From the NCBI GenBank assembly GCA_964354185.1, contig CAYGZE010000002.1, positions 1 to 36,462 of the forward strand: a stretch of 36,462 nt of DNA, written 5' to 3'. Source of the stretch: an uncultured Anaerolineales bacterium. Its GTDB lineage: Bacteria > Planctomycetota > Phycisphaerae > FEN-1346. The translations under genes were made by a program, and so were the position numbers. Position 1 is the first letter of the stretch, and each line of letters begins with the position of its first letter. This document shows, piece after piece, positions 3,374 through 36,462 of the stretch. The notes under the pieces were generated by a model, which saw nothing but the letters and a program-made list of their open reading frames with translations, was not told the DNA's origin and did not search any database.

Positions 3374-4570
3374 ATGCGCAAAAAAATCGCCATTATAGGT
3401 GCTCGAGGGCTCTCGAATTGGGGGGGATTTGAAACCGCAGCGCGTGAGATAGCTCCTCGGCTCGTGGAAAGGGGCTACGACGTTTATTGCAGCTGTGAGA
3501 AGAACAGCTGCGATCTAGACACCTATAAGGGCGTGCAGATGATCTACTTCCCGATACGGATGCCGAAGAATTACGAGCTGCGGAAGATTTTCGAAGTACT
3601 ATATGATCTGTACTTTATAATGAAATCGTCGACCGCGCTGAACTGCGATATCGTGTACAATCTCGGCTATAACGCAAATATTTTCATGGCCCTCCCTAGG
3701 CTGTTGGGGAAAAAAGTGATGTTTAACATGGCAGGGCTCGAATGGGAGAGATCTAAGTTCGGGAGGGTGCAGCAGTCCATTGTTAAAAGTCTATTCCTAC
3801 TAGCCACGGTAGGCGCTAACTACATAATTATCGATCACGAGAAGCTGAAACCGTACGTGCCATCTCGTTATCATGAAAAGGTCATCCTTCTCAGCTATGG
3901 TGCTAATGAGCCTGTCGTCGTGCCGTGGAACGCGCATGAGATAGCTGAGTATGCAGGGTCGGCGGAAATCGAGGATCTCCTCCCTTACGAATACTGGCTG
4001 GTTGTGGCTCGGTTGGAGCCAGATCAACATATCGCCACTATCGTCGATGCTTATCTGCACAGTACGAGCATAAAGCCGCTTGTTATCGTGGGCGACTTCT
4101 CTTCCAAGACTTATGAACAAACGATAGAGGAAGCGCTGAAAGACACACCCTCTGACAAAAAAGTCATCTGGACAGGCGGAATATATGACCAAGAGGTTCT
4201 TACCGTGTTGAGGCACAACTGCTTCGCGTATATCCATGGACATTCCAAAGGTGGTACAAACCCGTCTCTTTTAGAAGCGATGATTCATAGGAATATCGTG
4301 ATAGCCCACGATAACGTATTCAACAGAGGGGTTTGCCAGGATCTCGCTCTTTATTTTGAAGACAGCGATGAATTGCAGGACAAAATGAGGATGATTGAGA
4401 GCAACCCTTCAGAGTATGCCGAGCTTAAGGGCAAGGTTCTTGAAAGGGTGCGCGCTGAGTACTCGTGGGACAAAGTCGCCGATCAACATAATACATTTTT
4501 TCAGCAGCTACTTAGGGACGAAAGGGCAAGCCTATCTGCAGAGGGTGTGGGTTTACTAGCCAGGACATGA
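3374..4570 (+). CDS. GT4-family glycosyltransferase with DUF1972-type N-terminal domain
   Basis: N-terminus 'KIAIIGARGLSNWGGFETAAREIAPRLVERGYDV' is the pattern I associate with DUF1972. C-terminal GT-B half includes 'HGHSKGGTNPSLLEAM'. Confidence 0.85.
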   Translation: MRKKIAIIGARGLSNWGGFETAAREIAPRLVERGYDVYCSCEKNSCDLDTYKGVQMIYFPIRMPKNYELRKIFEVLYDLYFIMKSSTALNCDIVYNLGYNANIFMALPRLLGKKVMFNMAGLEWERSKFGRVQQSIVKSLFLLATVGANYIIIDHEKLKPYVPSRYHEKVILLSYGANEPVVVPWNAHEIAEYAGSAEIEDLLPYEYWLVVARLEPDQHIATIVDAYLHSTSIKPLVIVGDFSSKTYEQTIEEALKDTPSDKKVIWTGGIYDQEVLTVLRHNCFAYIHGHSKGGTNPSLLEAMIHRNIVIAHDNVFNRGVCQDLALYFEDSDELQDKMRMIESNPSEYAELKGKVLERVRAEYSWDKVADQHNTFFQQLLRDERASLSAEGVGLLART

Positions 4571-4928
4571 TAGGACTTTAAACGGCTCGATCTAGAAATC
4601 TGTCTTGCAGGCATACTTCACCGTAGCAAACGACATTGAGTAAAGATGTTGTCTCTCCTCAAGTGTTATTTTATTCTTGTCACGAAGACGTCAAGAAGGT
4701 CAAACTGAGTTAATGTTGGACCTAGCATGATACTAACGAACGATGGATAAGGAAACTATGCCGTTTATTTTCAAATGTCGATTATAGGAAAAACAGCCAA
4801 GCAACGTTTTTTTTACTAGCGTAGTCTCGCACACATCATTACTCCTGCACCTTTTTTCGTTTATTGTCGTTAAAAAGGCAGCTTTATACACGGATAAGCA
4901 TTGAATTAACAAACAGATTGGCCTGCAA

Positions 4929-5006
4929 GATAAAAAATTATGCTAACAGGCGGTATACGATCAAGAACCATTCACCATGCTCAAGCACAACTGTTTTGCG
5001 TATCTA
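4929..5006 (+). pseudogene. Decayed fragment of a DUF1972-type GT4 paralogue
   Basis: The DNA aligns with 4154-4232 of the intact gene. After correcting two 1-nt indels it reads 'DKK..TGGI(Y)DQEPFTMLKHNCFAYL' against intact 'DKKVIWTGGIYDQEVLTVLRHNCFAYI'. No open frame extends on either side. Confidence 0.55.
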
Positions 5007-5345
5007 CTATTTTGGCAAAATAAGTTAAGAAAGGCCGCGTTTATGCCCTAGGCAACCTTCACCGTTGATAGCGCTCTTGCTAATCGATTAGACATAGAAT
5101 CTAGACTTAGAAGTGCGCAAACCGGTAAGCTGCTAAGTAGGTCCGATTAGTTGTTAAGATTCTTGAAGAATATCTCAAAAGGGGCCTAGGCCTTAGACAC
5201 GGAAGCCATGGACCTAAAAAAAACAGTTTGCAGATAAAATGGCTGAGTTAGGCGTATTGCAAACTCAAGTTTATGTATACCGGCTAGGACACTGTTATAA
5301 AAGGATTATAAAGGAACTAGAACCGGCCAGAACTTAGATAAAGAC

Positions 5346-5611: not shown

Positions 5612-7169
5612 ATGCAAATTGCTGGGAAGAGAGTAACGAAATACAGTGTTGCGCTGTTGCTTATTGTCCTCATCGGCTTGTTTCTCAGGGTCTATCAGTT
5701 AGGCACAGAAAGTATCTGGATAGATGAGGCTTATTCCATTTCAATCTCTAAAACAAGCGTGCTTCAAATTGCAGCCGCTGTAGCAACTGAGGACGCTAAC
5801 CCTCCATTTTACCATTTTCTCCTACACTACTGGATGCTAGTTTTTGGCACTTCAGAGTTCGCTGTCAGGCTTCTGTCTACCCTCTTCGGCGTTCTCGCGA
5901 TACCGATGATCTACGTTGTGGCCCGGCAACTCTTCAACAAACAAGTAGGGCTTGTGGGAGCGATCATTCTCGCTGTTTCATATATCAACATTTGGTATTC
6001 GCAAGAGGCACGAATGTACACACTAATGGTCTTGCTCGCTCTTCTCTCCATGTATTTTTTCTTGCGCCTCTTGCAGCGAAGTACACTCTCGTCGTCAGCT
6101 GGATATGTGCTCGCAACCGCGCTTCTGATATGCACACACTACTATGGATTCTTTGTCATCGTTGCCCAGAACGTTTACCCTTGCGACCCTCTTGATGCTT
6201 TCAAGAAACCGAACGTACCGGCTAAGGTCTTGGGTAGCCCTGCAAGCGATCGTTCTGGCACTCTTTTTGCCTTGGCTGATCTTCTTCAGAATCTCGCAGA
6301 ATGGAGCGGCGGCCTGGGTCACGCCACCTACAATAGCCTCGGCGTTGGCCGTGCTCGAACACAACAATCTCGTTAGTGCGCTTATTCAGACATTTTCTTT
6401 CTATAGCGGCACCCAGGTGTTGCTAGCGCTTTTGCTGGGGTTGTCGGTGCTGTCCTTATTCGCATATCAAAGAGGACGCAGCGTAATGGATTGGAAAGCG
6501 CTACCAAAAGCTCTCGAAGGCTATTCGTGGGAAGTGCATATTCAAGACGTAACACAGGTGTACTTCCTAGCGGTGTGGTTGCTCTCAGTCACTCTGATAC
6601 CATTCATTATCTCTCGGTTGTCCGCCCCCATTTACATTGCGCGATACACGATCGCAGCTTCTGTTGCGTTTTACTTACTCGCGGCTAAGGGGATAACCAA
6701 TATCAACCACAAATACACTAAGCTAGCCGTTATTGGCATCATCGTCGTATTATCAATGGCGAACTTACAGGGATATTATACTTCTATAACAAAGCGACAA
6801 GCGCGAGAGGCGACTGCCGTGATCGACGCTAACTTTAGAAGCGGCGATGTTATTTTGGTTGCTCCACGCTGGGAAACACGTACGTTTGACTACTACAACA
6901 ACAGGACAGATGTCGCAGTCAAACCAATCGGTTTTGGATTCGCGTCGACAACGGTCACTAATCCTGAAGCTAAGACAAAGGAACTTCAGTCCGATGTGAA
7001 CGGCTATCAACGAGTCTGGTTTTACGACGGTAAAATTTCATTCGGATCGCGTACTGCAGAGAGAGCAGCAGAGAACTTCATATTAAGCTTCCTCAATGAG
7101 TCATATACGAAGATTGACGTCAAGAATTACGTTGAATATGATGTGTACTTGTATGAGAAGCGGGCGTAA
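5612..7169 (+). pseudogene. GT39/ArnT-like (PMT-type) membrane glycosyltransferase, interrupted by a +1 frameshift
   Basis: Two overlapping ORFs (5612..6376 and 6144..7169) in adjacent frames. N-terminal part has 'LFLRVYQLGTESIWIDEAYS'. The sense reading switches frame at the ccc run 6178-6180: '...HYYGFFVIVAQNVY' continues as 'LATLLMLSRNRTYRLRSWVALQAIVLALFLPWL...'. Confidence 0.75.
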
Positions 7170-29618: not shown

Positions 29619-30788
29619 TCACATGGGGGTAGGGCCGTCACTAGACCAGTACCAGTTGTGCCACGCACCGTTATAGTATTCTTTTTGGTAGAGGTAGCCG
29701 TTAGTCCCGCGAGTAAAGACGTCGATTTCTACCGTTCCCGAATACGTGAACGTCGTGGCGCACGGAGTCGTCTCTAATCCTCCGACTAGGTTTGTCCAGC
29801 CTGTCCACCCGCCAACTGACTTGTATGTTTTTTGATACATATAGCCGTTTGTACCCGCTACAAAGAAGTCCATACGGAATGTACCAGCAGAGACTGAGCC
29901 ATATGTGCAGATCGCTGGTGCGGTACCCGCTGCAACACCACCGCCCACGTAGCCCGTAGCCCACCAGTTGCCCGCGATACTGTACTCATACCCATAGACG
30001 GCGCCGTTGGTGCCGCGGACAGCTACTTCGACGTAACTGCTTTCCCGAGAAGCGGCTGTCGGTGACGACCCTAGTACGCCACCAATGCCAATGTATTTCC
30101 AGTCACTCCATCCAGCAGTATTAGTCCATGTTTTTTTATACATCAGGCCGCTCGAACCCTTTACAAAGAGGTCCACACGATTTGGGGTTTTGGCGACCGC
30201 TGGTCCGGTACCATATGAAACGTAACCAAGATTCCCGCCGGGCGTGTACTCAGCGCTCCACGTCCCGCCAGAATTGTGGAACCCGTGGACGGAGCCGTCA
30301 GTGTGGCGCCAAAAGACACTCATGGAAGCGAGACTATTTTCAGTCGACGAGGAGGCTGTGGGCGATGAGGTCAGCGATCCGCCAAGGCGGACCCATCCGC
30401 CTACCCAGTTAAGCGTCGTCGTAGACCAAATCCTGTACCAGCAGGCGCCGTCACTGCCTTTCACAAAGACGTACATGTCGTTTGTGCCGTACCTAATGCA
30501 AGAAGCAGGACCTGTGCCTGCAGCGATGGGCGAGCCCGTGAGATCGGGCGTTGGTACGGCGACCCTGCTGTTCTTAGCCTCGACAGCGACGACGGTAGTT
30601 GTGGGTGTTGCGGCGTTTTTAAATATGCCTTCACCGGCTACGGTGCTGGCGGGTTCGGCGACTGTACTAGCTTTGCTAGTGGTTTCGTCACTAGTGACTG
30701 CACTCACGCTCGTCGTCGCGTAGACCGCGCAGAGCGAGAGGAGCATGATGGCCGCCAAGGCGACACTCAAACTTCTTTTATGTTTCAT
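29619..30788 (-). CDS. Secreted multi-bladed beta-propeller repeat protein (PLL/DUF346-like or tectonin-like lectin fold)
   Basis: Signal peptide 'MKHKRSLSVALAAIMLLSLCAVYATTSVSA', then a Thr/Ser/Ala-rich linker, then about six repeats of 45-50 aa with 'F(V/T)(K/R)G(T/S)(N/D/S)G..Y' and 'W..W..(L/I)GG.L.S.P'. GAGGTGA lies 8 nt upstream of ATG 30788; ATG 30845 is an alternative. Confidence 0.85.
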   Translation of the reverse strand: MKHKRSLSVALAAIMLLSLCAVYATTSVSAVTSDETTSKASTVAEPASTVAGEGIFKNAATPTTTVVAVEAKNSRVAVPTPDLTGSPIAAGTGPASCIRYGTNDMYVFVKGSDGACWYRIWSTTTLNWVGGWVRLGGSLTSSPTASSSTENSLASMSVFWRHTDGSVHGFHNSGGTWSAEYTPGGNLGYVSYGTGPAVAKTPNRVDLFVKGSSGLMYKKTWTNTAGWSDWKYIGIGGVLGSSPTAASRESSYVEVAVRGTNGAVYGYEYSIAGNWWATGYVGGGVAAGTAPAICTYGSVSAGTFRMDFFVAGTNGYMYQKTYKSVGGWTGWTNLVGGLETTPCATTFTYSGTVEIDVFTRGTNGYLYQKEYYNGAWHNWYWSSDGPTPM

Positions 30789-31703
30789 ACATTGATTCAC
30801 CTCGTTCCCGGTAGAGGCAAGCGTAATTGCCGCGTTGCGCCGCATCTACGTGCCTGCTTCCGGGGTCCATGCTACACTAAAATATAAACAAACTACAGTG
30901 TGTTTATACGTAATAAAGGTTGTGTGACGCCGGATTGTTACAGCTTGCTGCAGACGCGCCGACGAGGAAGCGTGACGAAACGAACGCTGCCCACTCTTGT
31001 AACGGATCCCGCTCGCCGCGTTAGCGCGCCGTTATCAGCTCTCAACCGTTTTTACGCACTCGCTTCTATATATCGATACTTTTCGCTGTATCTAGCGGAG
31101 TGCCGATTTTTTTGCGCTTTTTGACACCGTATGCCGCGATGAATTGCGTTCGAAATCACCACCACCGTTACCGATCTTTCCGCATTTTCAACGTTGCGCA
31201 TGAAGAAATGAACGACTACCTCGAAAGGGGCAGGTCGATCGGGTAGTCGCGGCGGCCCGCTAATGCCGTGTGCGACTATCTAATAGGGGTCTTTTTGATG
31301 TCAGCGCGCACAGTTATTGTGACAGTTAATTCGCGTTTATTGACTTTTCACGCTCAGAGAGACTATCCAGGCCTCCAACGCGCTCGGCAGCGCAAACGCT
31401 CGCGCCCCGTCCCACTGCTAGTTCTAAGAGGAAAGCTCCCCGCTATGCTAGAAGTAAAGACTAGATGGGCGATGCAGGGGGCCAATTAGTTGCGGATCAA
31501 AGTGGTCTGATGCAATGAACGAGCAAGGCGAACGTGTCGTAGGCACTCGTTATCGTTGGCCTACAATTTGGTGAAATATGCTCGTTCATAAATTGCGGAA
31601 TCTCCTAATGCGCAAGTAGCAACATTTAAATCGCCCGTAGAGCTAACGATACGAAAAGGCACAATTGGCAAAAAAGCCAGGATAAGGGCCCTCGAGGCAA
31701 ACT

Positions 31704-33536: not shown

Positions 33537-34421
33537 GTGCCACCGCAGTACGACGTCGCCGTCGCTTACAGAATCTATCCGAAGGTCTCAAAGGTCCCCC
33601 CCGTCTTCCCCAACGACAAGTACAAATTATCAGAGCTCTGTCTGAAGAGCTTTAAGGACTCCCTCGGCTCACTGAAAGTAAAAATGTTCGTCTTGCTCGA
33701 TGGTTGCCCCCCGAGCTATAATGACTTGTTTACACAATACTTTGACGAGCAGGACTTGGAGCTGATCAGGCTCAACGGGGTTGGAAACCGCGCAACCTTT
33801 GATATGCAGATTAAGCTCCTCTTGGATCAAAATTTCTCAGAAATTGTCTATTTTGCCGAAGATGACTACCTGTATCTTCCAAACCAGTTTGAACGTATGG
33901 TGCAATTTCTAAAAGAAGCAGCGCACGTCGACTTCGTCTCTCCGTATGATCACATGGACTACTATGTTCTTGATTTACACAACCAAAAAAACTTCATCAA
34001 ATTCTATAATGACGCATACTGGCGAACTGCGGCTTCAACGTGTTTAACCTTCCTTACCACGAAAACGAAACTCGGAAAAACTCAAAACGTCTTTCATAGT
34101 TACTCACAGGGAAATCGTGACGCAAGCCTCTGGCTGAGCCTAACAAAGCACACGTTGTTCAACCCTCTTGTCATATTGAGGTATTACCGAGCAAACGGAG
34201 ACTTTTTTGGAATCATCAAGCTCGCGTGGCAATTCTGCTGGAGACAAATCTTATTTGGCAAACGGCGGAACTTGTGGGTTCCCATTCCGAGTATTGCAAC
34301 CCACATGGAGCGTGACCATTTAGCCCCGACCTTCGCCTGGCTCACGAAAAGTGGGGAGACAACTATTGAGCAAAACATGCACGCAAACGATAGCGAATAT
34401 GTCGCTCCCGCTATTATCTGA
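33537..34421 (+). CDS. Putative GT-A-fold glycosyltransferase (uncharacterised family)
   Basis: GTG start 5 nt after the upstream stop. 'VAVAYRIYPKVSK', 'VLLDGC', and 'YFAEDDYLY' (DxD-like). Family assignment is tentative. Confidence 0.55.
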   Translation: MPPQYDVAVAYRIYPKVSKVPPVFPNDKYKLSELCLKSFKDSLGSLKVKMFVLLDGCPPSYNDLFTQYFDEQDLELIRLNGVGNRATFDMQIKLLLDQNFSEIVYFAEDDYLYLPNQFERMVQFLKEAAHVDFVSPYDHMDYYVLDLHNQKNFIKFYNDAYWRTAASTCLTFLTTKTKLGKTQNVFHSYSQGNRDASLWLSLTKHTLFNPLVILRYYRANGDFFGIIKLAWQFCWRQILFGKRRNLWVPIPSIATHMERDHLAPTFAWLTKSGETTIEQNMHANDSEYVAPAII

Positions 34422-34894
34422 CCAAAATCTTGTTAGTGGCCGTGGATTGATATTTACTTGAGGCTTGGCCTGAGGCTTGGCCCAGTCAACTGAGAGAATC
34501 AATGTATATTTTTTCTACAGCGGTCATTAGCATTTAACATGATCGGATACTATTTTCATCACATCCCATGTGTTTCACGGTTGTTTCCTGTAGCTGCGTA
34601 GTCGGCGTAGCTTGCTCTTCTGTTCGGCGAATATCCTGTGCCTCGGCAGTAGAGGCGGCGAAGACGAGCGTTTTTGGCTAGCCGTTGTCCTGCGCAGTAG
34701 GTGTAAGTGGGTGGAGCGCTACCGGGGACGAGGGTTCGAGGGGGGGTTCCCTTGTGCGTGTCTCCTCTAAACCCATACGTTATCGCCGAGACGTTTCAAA
34801 AGCCGCAACGAGATTCTTGACGAAAGTGTGGCGGTATCAGAAATAGTTTTCTCTTCTCGACCGGACGCATTGAGGACACCCGGGCCACGCGCTT

Positions 34895-34935
34895 CTTAAA
34901 AAAGACGGAGGCGAAAAGGGAACCGCCTTTTCGCC
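34895..34935 (-). terminator. Intrinsic-terminator-like hairpin plus T-tract downstream of the peptidase-propeller gene
   Basis: Perfect 10-bp stem ggcgaaaagg/ccttttcgcc with a 6-nt loop (34910-34935). On the minus strand it is followed by 'tccgtctttttt', about 30 nt after the stop. Confidence 0.6.
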
Positions 34936-34966
34936 CATACTCTAATGTTGCGCTATCTGCACTGCG

Positions 34967-36462
34967 TTACATATAGACCTTCTCGTAGAGGGCGCCATTG
35001 GTGCCGCGCGCAAAGAGCTCGATCACACCAGCAGTCGGTGACGTCGCAGCGGGTGACGAGGTCACCTGCCCGCCGAGGGATTTCCAGCCGGACCACGCGT
35101 TAGTCCACGTGTTCTGATACACGGCGCCGTTCGTCGGTTGTACGTTCGTGCCTTGTATAAAGACGTCTTCACGAGCTGTGCCCCATGAGCTGAGCGCCGG
35201 TCCGGTATTCGCTTGAATCCCCCCGCCGAGGCTGGCCCAGGGGTTCCACGTCGGAGAGACATATGCCCTGTAATAGTCGGCGCCGTTCGAACCGCGGGCA
35301 TGGACGTCGATAAGACCCGTCCCCCGCGATACGGCTCCGGGTGACGAGGTCAGGTAGCCACCGAGATTTTCCCAGCCAGCATGGCCCGTCCACGAGTGGT
35401 AGAGCTGGTGGTTCGTGCCGATGACAAACCAGCCGGTCCGGGCGGTTCCCCAGTCGTAAGCGGCAGGGCTCGTGCCGGCAAGGAGCTGCCCGCCGAGGCT
35501 GGTCCACCCGCCCCAGATGCCTCCCGCGTAGTGCTTCGTGTAGAGAGCGCCGTTACTGCCGCGGGCATAGACGTCAATCACGCCACTATCCGGTGACGTC
35601 GCGGCGGGTGAGGACGTTAGGTACCCACCGAGGGGTGTCCAGCCACTGCCCGTCGACCAATAGAGTTGGTGGTTTGTGCCGATGACAAAACAGCCGGTCG
35701 TCGATCCCGAGGTGTACGCGGCAGGGCTCGTACCGGCGAGAATCTGCCCGCCGAGGTTGGTCCAAGCGCCCCAGGCGCCCGATTGAGTGCCTGTGAACGC
35801 TTTAATACATATGTTCAAGGTACTATCAACGGTCGTTGCATCTTGCCACCCAGTTCCGTCTGAGCTGAAATAACTCTGTCCAGGCGATGCAGTGGCAGCG
35901 CTCGAGTATCCGGCCAGGGCGTACTCGGATGCTATCGGCCAAGCGTAGCTAGGATTGGTGTACTTGACGACGACTGAGAATGTCTGTCCAGAGCTGAGCG
36001 AAACGGGCGTCGTCAGTTTGACCGTGTGGTATCCTGGCGTCGAGAACGTGCCGGTCGGGCCGACATGTTGCGTTCCGCTTGTCGGGCCTGAGGTTGCATC
36101 GGTGTAGATGTACACTTGGTACTGCGTGTTCACGTCGTTCGTGTAGAAGCTCACTGCGGTGAGGGGTTTAGCGCTGCTATCGGCAGTAAAAACGTTCGCC
36201 CCCCACGCGGTTGTAGTAGTTCCGCCGTAGCCCAAATCTGTAACCCAGCCTAGTGGATCGTACTGGTACCCTGCGGCGTAGTTGGACGCGGGCTCGCCCG
36301 TAAACGATGTCGCTTGGGTAATCGAAGTGTCGTAGTACGAGAGGTAGAAGTACCCCCCATCGCCCCACGACGTTCCCCAGCTGTTCTTTACAATAAATGC
36401 ACCATTTCCGGGCGGGGCTCCCGCATAGCCGCGGAAGTTGCTTGCGGCATAATTGTCGTCCC
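34967..36462 (-). CDS. Papain-family (C1) cysteine peptidase C-terminal part + beta-rich lectin-like domain + six-bladed PLL/DUF346-like propeller (5' end off-window)
   Basis: The frame stays open from TTG 36235 to the window edge and reads '...GAFIVKNSWGTSWGDGGYFYLSYYD...', the C1 peptidase NSWG..WG..GY motif. About 150 aa of beta-rich sequence follow, then six repeats with 'W..LGG.L.S.PAA' and 'ARG(S/T)NGALY' / 'VIGTNHQLY'. Confidence 0.85.
   Translation of the reverse strand, partial: DDNYAASNFRGYAGAPPGNGAFIVKNSWGTSWGDGGYFYLSYYDTSITQATSFTGEPASNYAAGYQYDPLGWVTDLGYGGTTTTAWGANVFTADSSAKPLTAVSFYTNDVNTQYQVYIYTDATSGPTSGTQHVGPTGTFSTPGYHTVKLTTPVSLSSGQTFSVVVKYTNPSYAWPIASEYALAGYSSAATASPGQSYFSSDGTGWQDATTVDSTLNICIKAFTGTQSGAWGAWTNLGGQILAGTSPAAYTSGSTTGCFVIGTNHQLYWSTGSGWTPLGGYLTSSPAATSPDSGVIDVYARGSNGALYTKHYAGGIWGGWTSLGGQLLAGTSPAAYDWGTARTGWFVIGTNHQLYHSWTGHAGWENLGGYLTSSPGAVSRGTGLIDVHARGSNGADYYRAYVSPTWNPWASLGGGIQANTGPALSSWGTAREDVFIQGTNVQPTNGAVYQNTWTNAWSGWKSLGGQVTSSPAATSPTAGVIELFARGTNGALYEKVYM
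35228..35752. repeat. Tandem two-blade duplication (about 258-267 bp units) within the propeller coding region
   Basis: Unit A (35495-35752, aa 'GGQILAGTSPAAY...WGGWTSL') and unit B (35228-35494, 'GGQLLAGTSPAAY...NPWASL') are visibly similar at the DNA level, for example 'gtgccgatgacaaa(a/c)cagccggtc'. Confidence 0.8.

Follow-up and report, generated by a model that had tools for sequence, protein, structure and literature searches.

A truncated gene for a Cwp84-like papain-family protease with a six-bladed PLL-type propeller, probably directed to a glycosylated surface

The window analysed here is contig CAYGZE010000002.1 over its full length of 36,462 nucleotides; the element under study, the 3' part of a gene for a papain-family (C1A) cysteine protease, lies at its right-hand end on the minus strand (Table 1). 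The minus-strand frame entered at 36460 runs through 497 codons without a stop to the TAA at 34967-34969, and the remaining two minus-strand frames carry many stops in the protease region. Three parts are encoded in order: the tail of a C1A peptidase, a Lectin_like domain and a six-bladed propeller. The open reading frame (ORF) lister called 34967..36235, beginning at the TTG at 36235 because the first start codon met is taken; the 75 residues upstream of this TTG were aligned with homologues and are therefore coding. The initial annotation had read the same frame upstream to 36462, which is borne out by the open frame and by homologues that align over 100% of the fragment (up to 68-70% identity). 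Stops upstream and a missing Peptidase_C1 match, the two observations named there as counter-evidence, were both looked for and not found.

The truncation, recognised from the outset at the window edge, lies precisely where the contig stops; since the window spans the entire contig, it was the assembly that cut the gene, its catalytic Cys/His half being unrecoverable. The 5' part, with signal peptide, pro-region and catalytic Cys/His, should lie beyond this end. Extension of the contig beyond 36462, as had been proposed, was attempted by exact 64-mer scans of genome and metagenome contig collections, in which no continuation was found; exact-protein look-ups with the protease fragment and two complete neighbours gave no match.

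The papain-family assignment rests on residues 18-42, which match PF00112 (Peptidase_C1) at 24.8 bits against a cut-off of 20.7 (Pfam); only profile positions 180-204 of 220 are covered, because the rest of the domain is off the contig, and full-length homologues reach 84-90 bits. The C-terminal motif that first suggested this family (FIVKNSWGTSWGDGGYFYLSYYD, residues 22-44 of the 497-codon frame) holds Asn26-Ser27-Trp28 within FIVKNSWG (Asn codon 36383-36385), the counterpart of papain Asn175-Ser-Trp177, which orients the catalytic His. Among 43 aligned sequences Asn26 is invariant, and Ser27 and Trp28 are at least 90% conserved. PDB matches of the tail are to cathepsin, Der p 1 and Cwp84; the stub (residues 1-63) is modelled with low confidence, as expected of a domain fragment (AlphaFold). 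The fragment opens at DDNY, right behind the position of the catalytic-His motif (NHAVTIVGW followed by DDNY in homologues), and the positions of the papain catalytic Cys25/His159 dyad and of the oxyanion Gln19 fall upstream of residue 1, as had been anticipated in the remark that the catalytic half is not visible.

What precedes residue 1 was read from homologues. In a 40-sequence alignment the catalytic positions are kept in all covering sequences (numbering of the homologue P0001): Gln120 in 37 of 37, Cys126 in 37 of 37, His262 in 39 of 39 and Asn295 in 40 of 40. Each complete N-terminus in this alignment has a short K/R-rich start and then about 20 hydrophobic residues; in homologues with a complete N-terminus, about 95-100 residues stand ahead of the mature domain. 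The model of P0001 (766 residues, 68-70% identical to the fragment) has pro-Cwp84 as its best match (4ci7 and 4d59; template-modelling (TM) score 0.77-0.81, E = 5e-25), with PLL lectins next.

The β-rich domain of roughly 150 residues that had been described between protease and propeller is the Lectin_like β-sandwich, matched by PF18560 over residues 65-223 at 175.8 bits and E = 9e-52 (Pfam). It is a named domain, first found in Cwp84 of Clostridioides difficile (PMC4089489), and stands behind the protease both there and in hundreds of C1A proteases of bacteria and archaea. Residues 1-224 of the fragment align with the Cwp84 chains 4d59/4ci7 (E = 6e-14), and the domain is modelled as all-β with a predicted local distance difference test (pLDDT) score of mostly 80-95 (AlphaFold).

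The propeller consists of six W-motif repeats of about 45 residues (residues 230-497), in two alternating blade types: LGGQ.LAGTSPAAY...F.IGTNHQLY in odd blades; LGG.LTSSPAA.S...IDV.ARGSNGALY in even blades. Against the PDB (phmmer), multiple blades were matched by the lectins PLL2 (3.8e-42), PHL (3.1e-38) and PLL (1e-28), and also by PLL3-5, at about 30% identity. The AlphaFold model of the fragment, built on a 43-sequence alignment, has a mean pLDDT of 82.8, with ten-residue block means over residues 240-430 mostly at least 93; the propeller, with pLDDT mostly above 90, contains 23 DSSP strands in six four-stranded blades. The structure prediction asked for in the initial annotation thus returned an all-β Lectin_like domain followed by a six-bladed propeller, and both the six blades, seen as sequence repeats and in the model, and the order of PF00112, PF18560 (159 residues) and the six repeats agree with what had been described there. 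In Foldseek the top family for the propeller is PLL (E = 1e-16); the six-bladed fucose lectins AAL, AFL and AofleA fit better geometrically (TM score 0.63-0.70, root-mean-square deviation 3.3-4.4 Å). The scores of the three parts lie far outside chance. What the domains are, how they are ordered and folded, and that homologues conserve the catalytic residues, is established.

The assignment of the propeller to DUF346, suggested earlier, was right in kind: PF03984 is matched by P0001 at 17.5 bits and by P0004 at 69 bits, and both homologues carry precomputed matches to PF26607 (Beta-prop_PLL). It did not hold for the window propeller itself, which has no match at E ≤ 10. In our Pfam and NCBIfam scans no propeller family was placed on the fragment, because PF26607 is absent from the Pfam copy scanned.

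The pockets in which fucosides and O-methylated sugars are bound by PLL lectins lie between blades, and each is formed by two Trp residues and a turn Ser/Thr (PMC12203525; PMC5584973). The elements of the H-site are Ser/Thr in the G[ST][DN] turn, the aromatic residue of AL[WY] and a Trp that stands three residues ahead of LGG in the following blade; as mapped by placing PLL3 residue numbers (PMC12203525) onto the PLL2 alignment, an inferred correspondence, all three are present at six of six blade junctions of the window propeller. The aromatic residue is Tyr in place of one of the two ligand-stacking Trp residues in all six blades; Tyr stands at the same position in two blades (NNALYH) of the functional lectin PLL2.

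A homologue search gave 1512 matches, and domains were counted in the best 120 clusters (90% identity level). PF00112, PF18560 and PF26607 occur together in at least 50 of these 120, and the architecture, which had been called unusual, is common in public archaeal metagenome data. The three-domain clusters come from metagenome-assembled genomes (MAGs) of uncultured Halobacteriota and Bathyarchaeia (P0070 being from Bathyarchaeia) and, where named, are entered as 'C1A family cysteine protease' or 'lectin like domain-containing protein'. Most of these homologues are 38-68% identical over 83-100% of the fragment, the best 68-70%; some have an inserted immunoglobulin-like (Ig-like) domain. The C1A and Lectin_like core is found in Methanoregulaceae, Methanosarcina, Methanocella, Bacillota, Aminicenantes, Elusimicrobia and others, and elsewhere is joined to PKD, VCBS/FG-GAP, fascin, DUF11 and dockerin modules. 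No propeller lies within 3 kb of any of the 80 best C1A and Lectin_like loci of GTDB species representatives, which limits the fusion to a narrower group, mostly uncultured and seen mainly in metagenomes.

The propeller is itself portable. In the same lineages it forms the C-terminal module of other exported enzymes, a subtilisin (P0014), redoxins (P0021/P0107/P0113) and DUF2334/deacetylase-like proteins (P0073/P0082/P0118), and it also stands alone behind a signal-like segment; judged from these sequences, it behaves as a putative anchoring or targeting module. The blade number in the 40-sequence alignment is mostly six, with seven tails of four-blade length, one of five and one of eight. Propeller length steps by two blades in the family, from about 190 residues (four) through 275-289 (six) to 363 (eight); the length variants listed (alignment A2) are P0002, P0020, P0039, P0046, P0048, P0056, P0070 and P0081. 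Two-blade units are near-identical in P0001, P0002 and P0006, unlike in the window propeller, and sequence comparison suggests that the propeller has expanded and contracted recently by this unit. A four-blade propeller might close by dimerising, for instance. For the window propeller, a recent duplication of blades at DNA level was considered and rejected: Tandem Repeats Finder gave only a trivial 9-bp repeat, and its blades are therefore old and diverged.

The functions encoded in the remainder of the window are mostly those of surface-glycan synthesis (Table 1), and the uridine diphosphate (UDP)-glucuronate decarboxylase adjoining the protease shares 86-90% identity with proteins from MAGs named 'Halobacteriota archaeon' and 'Euryarchaeota archaeon'. 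Inside the glycan cluster lies a second propeller gene, whose product has a hydrophobic N-terminal segment, a Ser/Thr-rich linker and a PLL-type propeller; the latter is 35% identical to the protease propeller (E = 3e-27), and the protein matches PLL-family PDB entries at E = 2e-18. Its G+C content at second codon positions is unusually high (0.58), as in the protease gene.

Table 1 Features of the window with their coordinates, strand and the evidence on which each was placed
Feature	Position	Strand	Evidence
3' part of protease gene, 497 codons and TAA	34967..36462	-	Translation; homologue alignment
C-terminal tail of papain-family (C1A) peptidase, residues 1-64	36269..36462	-	Pfam, PDB matches, alignment
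Lectin_like β-sandwich (PF18560), Cwp84 type, residues 65-223 (159 residues)	35792..36268	-	Pfam
Six-bladed β-propeller, PLL/DUF346 lectin type, residues 226-497	34970..35785	-	PDB sequence matches, AlphaFold, Foldseek
Six blades of the propeller	35648-35773, 35516-35647, 35381-35515, 35249-35380, 35096-35248, 34970-35095	-	Repeat analysis
Terminator-like hairpin, 11-pair stem followed by T run, about 30 nucleotides past the protease stop	34899..34936 (hairpin at 34936-34909)	-	Consensus scan and sequence
Second propeller gene, 408 residues, without enzyme domain	29619..30845	-	Translation
About nine glycosyltransferases (GT1/GT4-type, GT2-type, PMT_2-type)	1-34421		
Five S-adenosylmethionine (SAM) methyltransferases, Polysacc_synt flippase, two nucleotidyltransferases	1-34421		
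Two nucleoside diphosphate (NDP)-sugar epimerase/dehydratases including UDP-glucuronate decarboxylase; GFO/IDH/MocA oxidoreductase	1-34421		
DUF2206 membrane protein, 732 residues	1-34421		

The surroundings of the protease were compared at six loci (the window, L090, L091, L002, L001 and L089), of which L090 and L091 are related metagenome contigs with the orthologous protease. At L090 (P0041; 6831-20799) the protease stands among four further propeller genes and DUF2206, GT2 and nucleotidyltransferase genes; at L091 (P0010; 1645-22130) among three further propeller genes, one of them a redoxin fusion, together with a flippase, GT87, GT4s and an RfbT-like methyltransferase; at L002 (P0001) a further propeller gene lies downstream (4203-5033). 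Propeller paralogues are thus present at four of the six loci and glycan-synthesis genes at three (window, L090, L091); the association of the protease with both is recurrent, not obligatory.

The gene next to the protease is convergent and ends at 34421, and the two convergent genes are separated by a 545-base gap (34422-34966) without convincing ORFs. Beyond the terminator-like hairpin nothing was identified in this gap, for which no RNA-family search was made; the hairpin is a pattern match only, one such site being expected by chance in the scanned region. A protein of the Inhibitor_I42 (chagasin) family, a family of inhibitors of papain-type proteases, is encoded on the minus strand in relatives at three other loci (L085, 7327-7878; L086, 7327-7884; L087, 7327-7596), about 2 kb upstream of the nucleotidyltransferase/decarboxylase pair; no counterpart was seen among window ORFs of at least 30 residues at 30846-31703, the corresponding gap, which was not scanned with profiles. 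Two long plus-strand ORFs, 5612-6376 and 6144-7169, lie in different frames and overlap by about 230 bases; the former holds only the N-terminal part of a PMT_2 domain (profile 2-125 of 160), the latter has no Pfam match, and the pair resembles a gene broken by a frameshift or an error in sequencing. The many methyltransferases of the window may be set beside the preference of PLL lectins for O-methylated sugars; such a link is speculative.

In base composition the protease gene stands out, with 60% G+C and a G+C content at third codon positions (GC3) of 0.69, against 39-56% G+C in neighbours and GC3 of 0.34-0.60 in other genes; over positions 35001-36000 of the window G+C is 62%, against 40-55% elsewhere. 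This excess was considered as evidence of recent horizontal transfer and was not accepted as decisive, because orthologues exceed their flanking DNA likewise (58-60% against 53-55%; GC3 0.65-0.72) and the protein is rich in Gly, Thr, Ala and Ser (49% of the fragment). The excess is treated as a family trait, seen here also against a typically low-GC glycan cluster.

On this evidence an uncultured Halobacteriota archaeon probably encodes a secreted cysteine protease of the papain family, similar to Cwp84, of which the fragment is the C-terminal two-thirds and in which the propeller directs the protease to a glycosylated surface; the suggestion of a substrate- or surface-targeting protease, made in the initial annotation, remains the best supported. 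By analogy with full-length homologues, the missing N-terminus would hold a signal or anchor segment, an inhibitory pro-region of about 100 residues and the catalytic Gln, Cys and His. The protein would be exported as a zymogen, its pro-region lying, as in Cwp84, over the cleft of the active site and about the lectin-like domain, and would be activated by removal of the propeptide. The Lectin_like β-sandwich is expected to pack on the protease domain and help to form the substrate groove, again as in Cwp84. The propeller would serve as a multivalent carbohydrate-binding module that keeps the enzyme on, or guides it to, a glycosylated surface; this role in targeting or anchoring is proposed because the propeller stands where Cwp84 has its CWB2 anchors and because it decorates other exported enzymes. 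Secretion, glycan binding, target surface and substrate are what we infer here. Among such surfaces the cell's own envelope is the leading candidate, on which the enzyme might cut surface proteins, although this narrower claim is put forward tentatively and with low confidence.

Several points weigh against this interpretation. The catalytic half, the signal peptide and the pro-region of this particular gene are outside the data, and the three-domain family has no experimentally studied member; no literature was found on the three-domain architecture or on DUF346 in archaea. Cwp84's lectin-like domain has no demonstrated carbohydrate binding, and its authors allow for another function (PMC4089489). 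The window propeller does not match PF03984 (DUF346) even at E ≤ 10, and one of the two ligand-stacking Trp residues of the PLL site is replaced by Tyr in six of six blades. As to the surroundings, the syntenic pair L001/L089 has the protease beside a transglutaminase-core gene and no glycan genes; conserved synteny with the adjacent glycosyltransferase and UDP-glucuronate decarboxylase genes was considered and rejected, as close relatives with the NTP-transferase/UDP-glucuronate decarboxylase pair have no protease there; and no surface-layer (S-layer) gene was identified in the window, nor any cleavage site.

Of the alternatives, an outward-directed protease survives best: the propeller would bind foreign glycans, of detritus glycoproteins or neighbours' envelopes, and serve in scavenging or antagonism. 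PLL-family lectins do bind non-self glycans, namely host and nematode fucosides and O-methylated sugars (PMC12203525; PMC5584973), the many adhesion-type C-terminal modules joined to the C1A and Lectin_like core suggest varied external targets, the family is also present in Bathyarchaeia (P0070), and the gene position at L001/L089 is not conserved relative to envelope genes. However, in the window, at L090 and at L091 the propeller genes lie together with genes for the cell's own glycan synthesis; the propeller is also carried by redoxins and deacetylase-like enzymes, for which a part in attack or feeding is not obvious; and the closest hosts by name are Halobacteriota MAGs, with related C1A cores in methanogen lineages, which do not live on proteins. 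A foreign target is possible and rather unlikely. The converse proposal, also unlikely, is that the propeller is a general envelope-anchoring lectin of Halobacteriota and some Bathyarchaeia, which would recognise the cell's own, possibly O-methylated, glycan made by the adjacent clusters and display the C1A protease, subtilisin, redoxins and deacetylase-like proteins on it.

It is less probable still that the propeller is no lectin and acts as a platform for protein-protein contacts or oligomerisation, docking an S-layer protein or other propeller proteins, its likeness to PLL reflecting fold and repeat ancestry. β-Propellers are commonly protein-binding scaffolds; the replacement of a stacking Trp by Tyr in all blades, the blade number (six here, four or eight in relatives, unlike PLL) and the lack of a DUF346 match in Pfam point the same way, and PLL lectins themselves oligomerise (PMC12203525). 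Against this, the nearest relatives by sequence and by fold are all carbohydrate-binding (PLL family; AAL/AFL fucose lectins), the other site residues are kept at all six junctions, and the functional PLL2 has Tyr at the same position in two blades. That this copy of the gene has decayed or lost its catalytic function, and is kept for its binding domains only, is extremely improbable: the catalytic Cys and His lie outside the window and nothing there proves activity, yet the 497 codons contain no stop or frameshift, the alignment with active-looking homologues runs end to end with Asn-Ser-Trp intact, Gln, Cys and His are kept in all homologues covering those positions, and the truncation falls exactly at the contig end.

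For a probable surface-directed protease of this kind, the single gene adds little, being a truncated member of a well-populated, automatically annotated family with structurally known parts. The value lies in the family, in which a Cwp84 protease core is reused in archaea with a lectin propeller, and the only lead of wider reach is that genes for propeller-tagged exported proteins and for glycan synthesis cluster together. Were the propeller an anchor to the cell's own glycan, it would be an archaeal functional counterpart of CWB2, SLH or LysM anchors and a novel route by which archaea fix enzymes to the envelope; the protease would then mature or remodel surface-layer proteins, as Cwp84 does, and would offer a handle on surface-protein maturation in uncultured methanogen-related lineages.

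Three groups of known proteins were compared with the fragment. Cwp84 (Clostridioides difficile; PDB 4CI7, 4D59), whose domain layout and role in S-layer maturation have been described (PMC4089489), consists of signal peptide, propeptide, C1A protease, lectin-like domain and three CWB2 repeats, and cleaves the S-layer precursor SlpA. Shared with it are the protease and Lectin_like (PF18560) core in the same order, a further C-terminal module behind this core, and the fold of the P0001 homologue, whose model superposes with the propeptide included (TM score 0.77-0.81). In contrast, identity to Cwp84 is only about 25-28%, the host is an archaeon and not a Firmicute, and a six-bladed PLL-type propeller stands in place of the three CWB2 repeats; PF04122 (CWB2) has no match on the fragment, and no SlpA-like gene was identified.

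The second group are lectins. With the Photorhabdus 'bangle' lectins PLL, PLL2-5 and PHL (PDB 5C9L, 6RFZ, 5MXE) the propeller shares the W-motif blades, the four-stranded blade fold and, by alignment, the residues of the putative inter-blade site (Ser/Thr, aromatic, Trp); unlike these free-standing, seven-bladed proteins of about 370 residues, it is six-bladed, with two alternating blade types, is fused behind an enzyme, and has Tyr for the first stacking Trp of most PLL blades. With the six-bladed fucose lectins AAL, AFL/FleA and AofleA (PDB 1OFZ, 4AGI, 7C38) it shares blade number and overall fold, whereas sequence identity is 12-18% and the repeat family differs; in AAL/AFL-type lectins fucose is recognised by a hydrogen-bond network, not by Trp stacking (PMC5584973). 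The third group are uncharacterised archaeal proteins (P0001, P0004, P0006, P0018) with the same order of PF00112, PF18560 and PF26607, of which none is near-identical to the fragment and some differ in blade number or by an Ig-like insert. Set against the databases, the fragment adds a truncated new member to an existing family; compared with characterised proteins, it is a variant of Cwp84 in which a lectin propeller replaces the CWB2 repeats.

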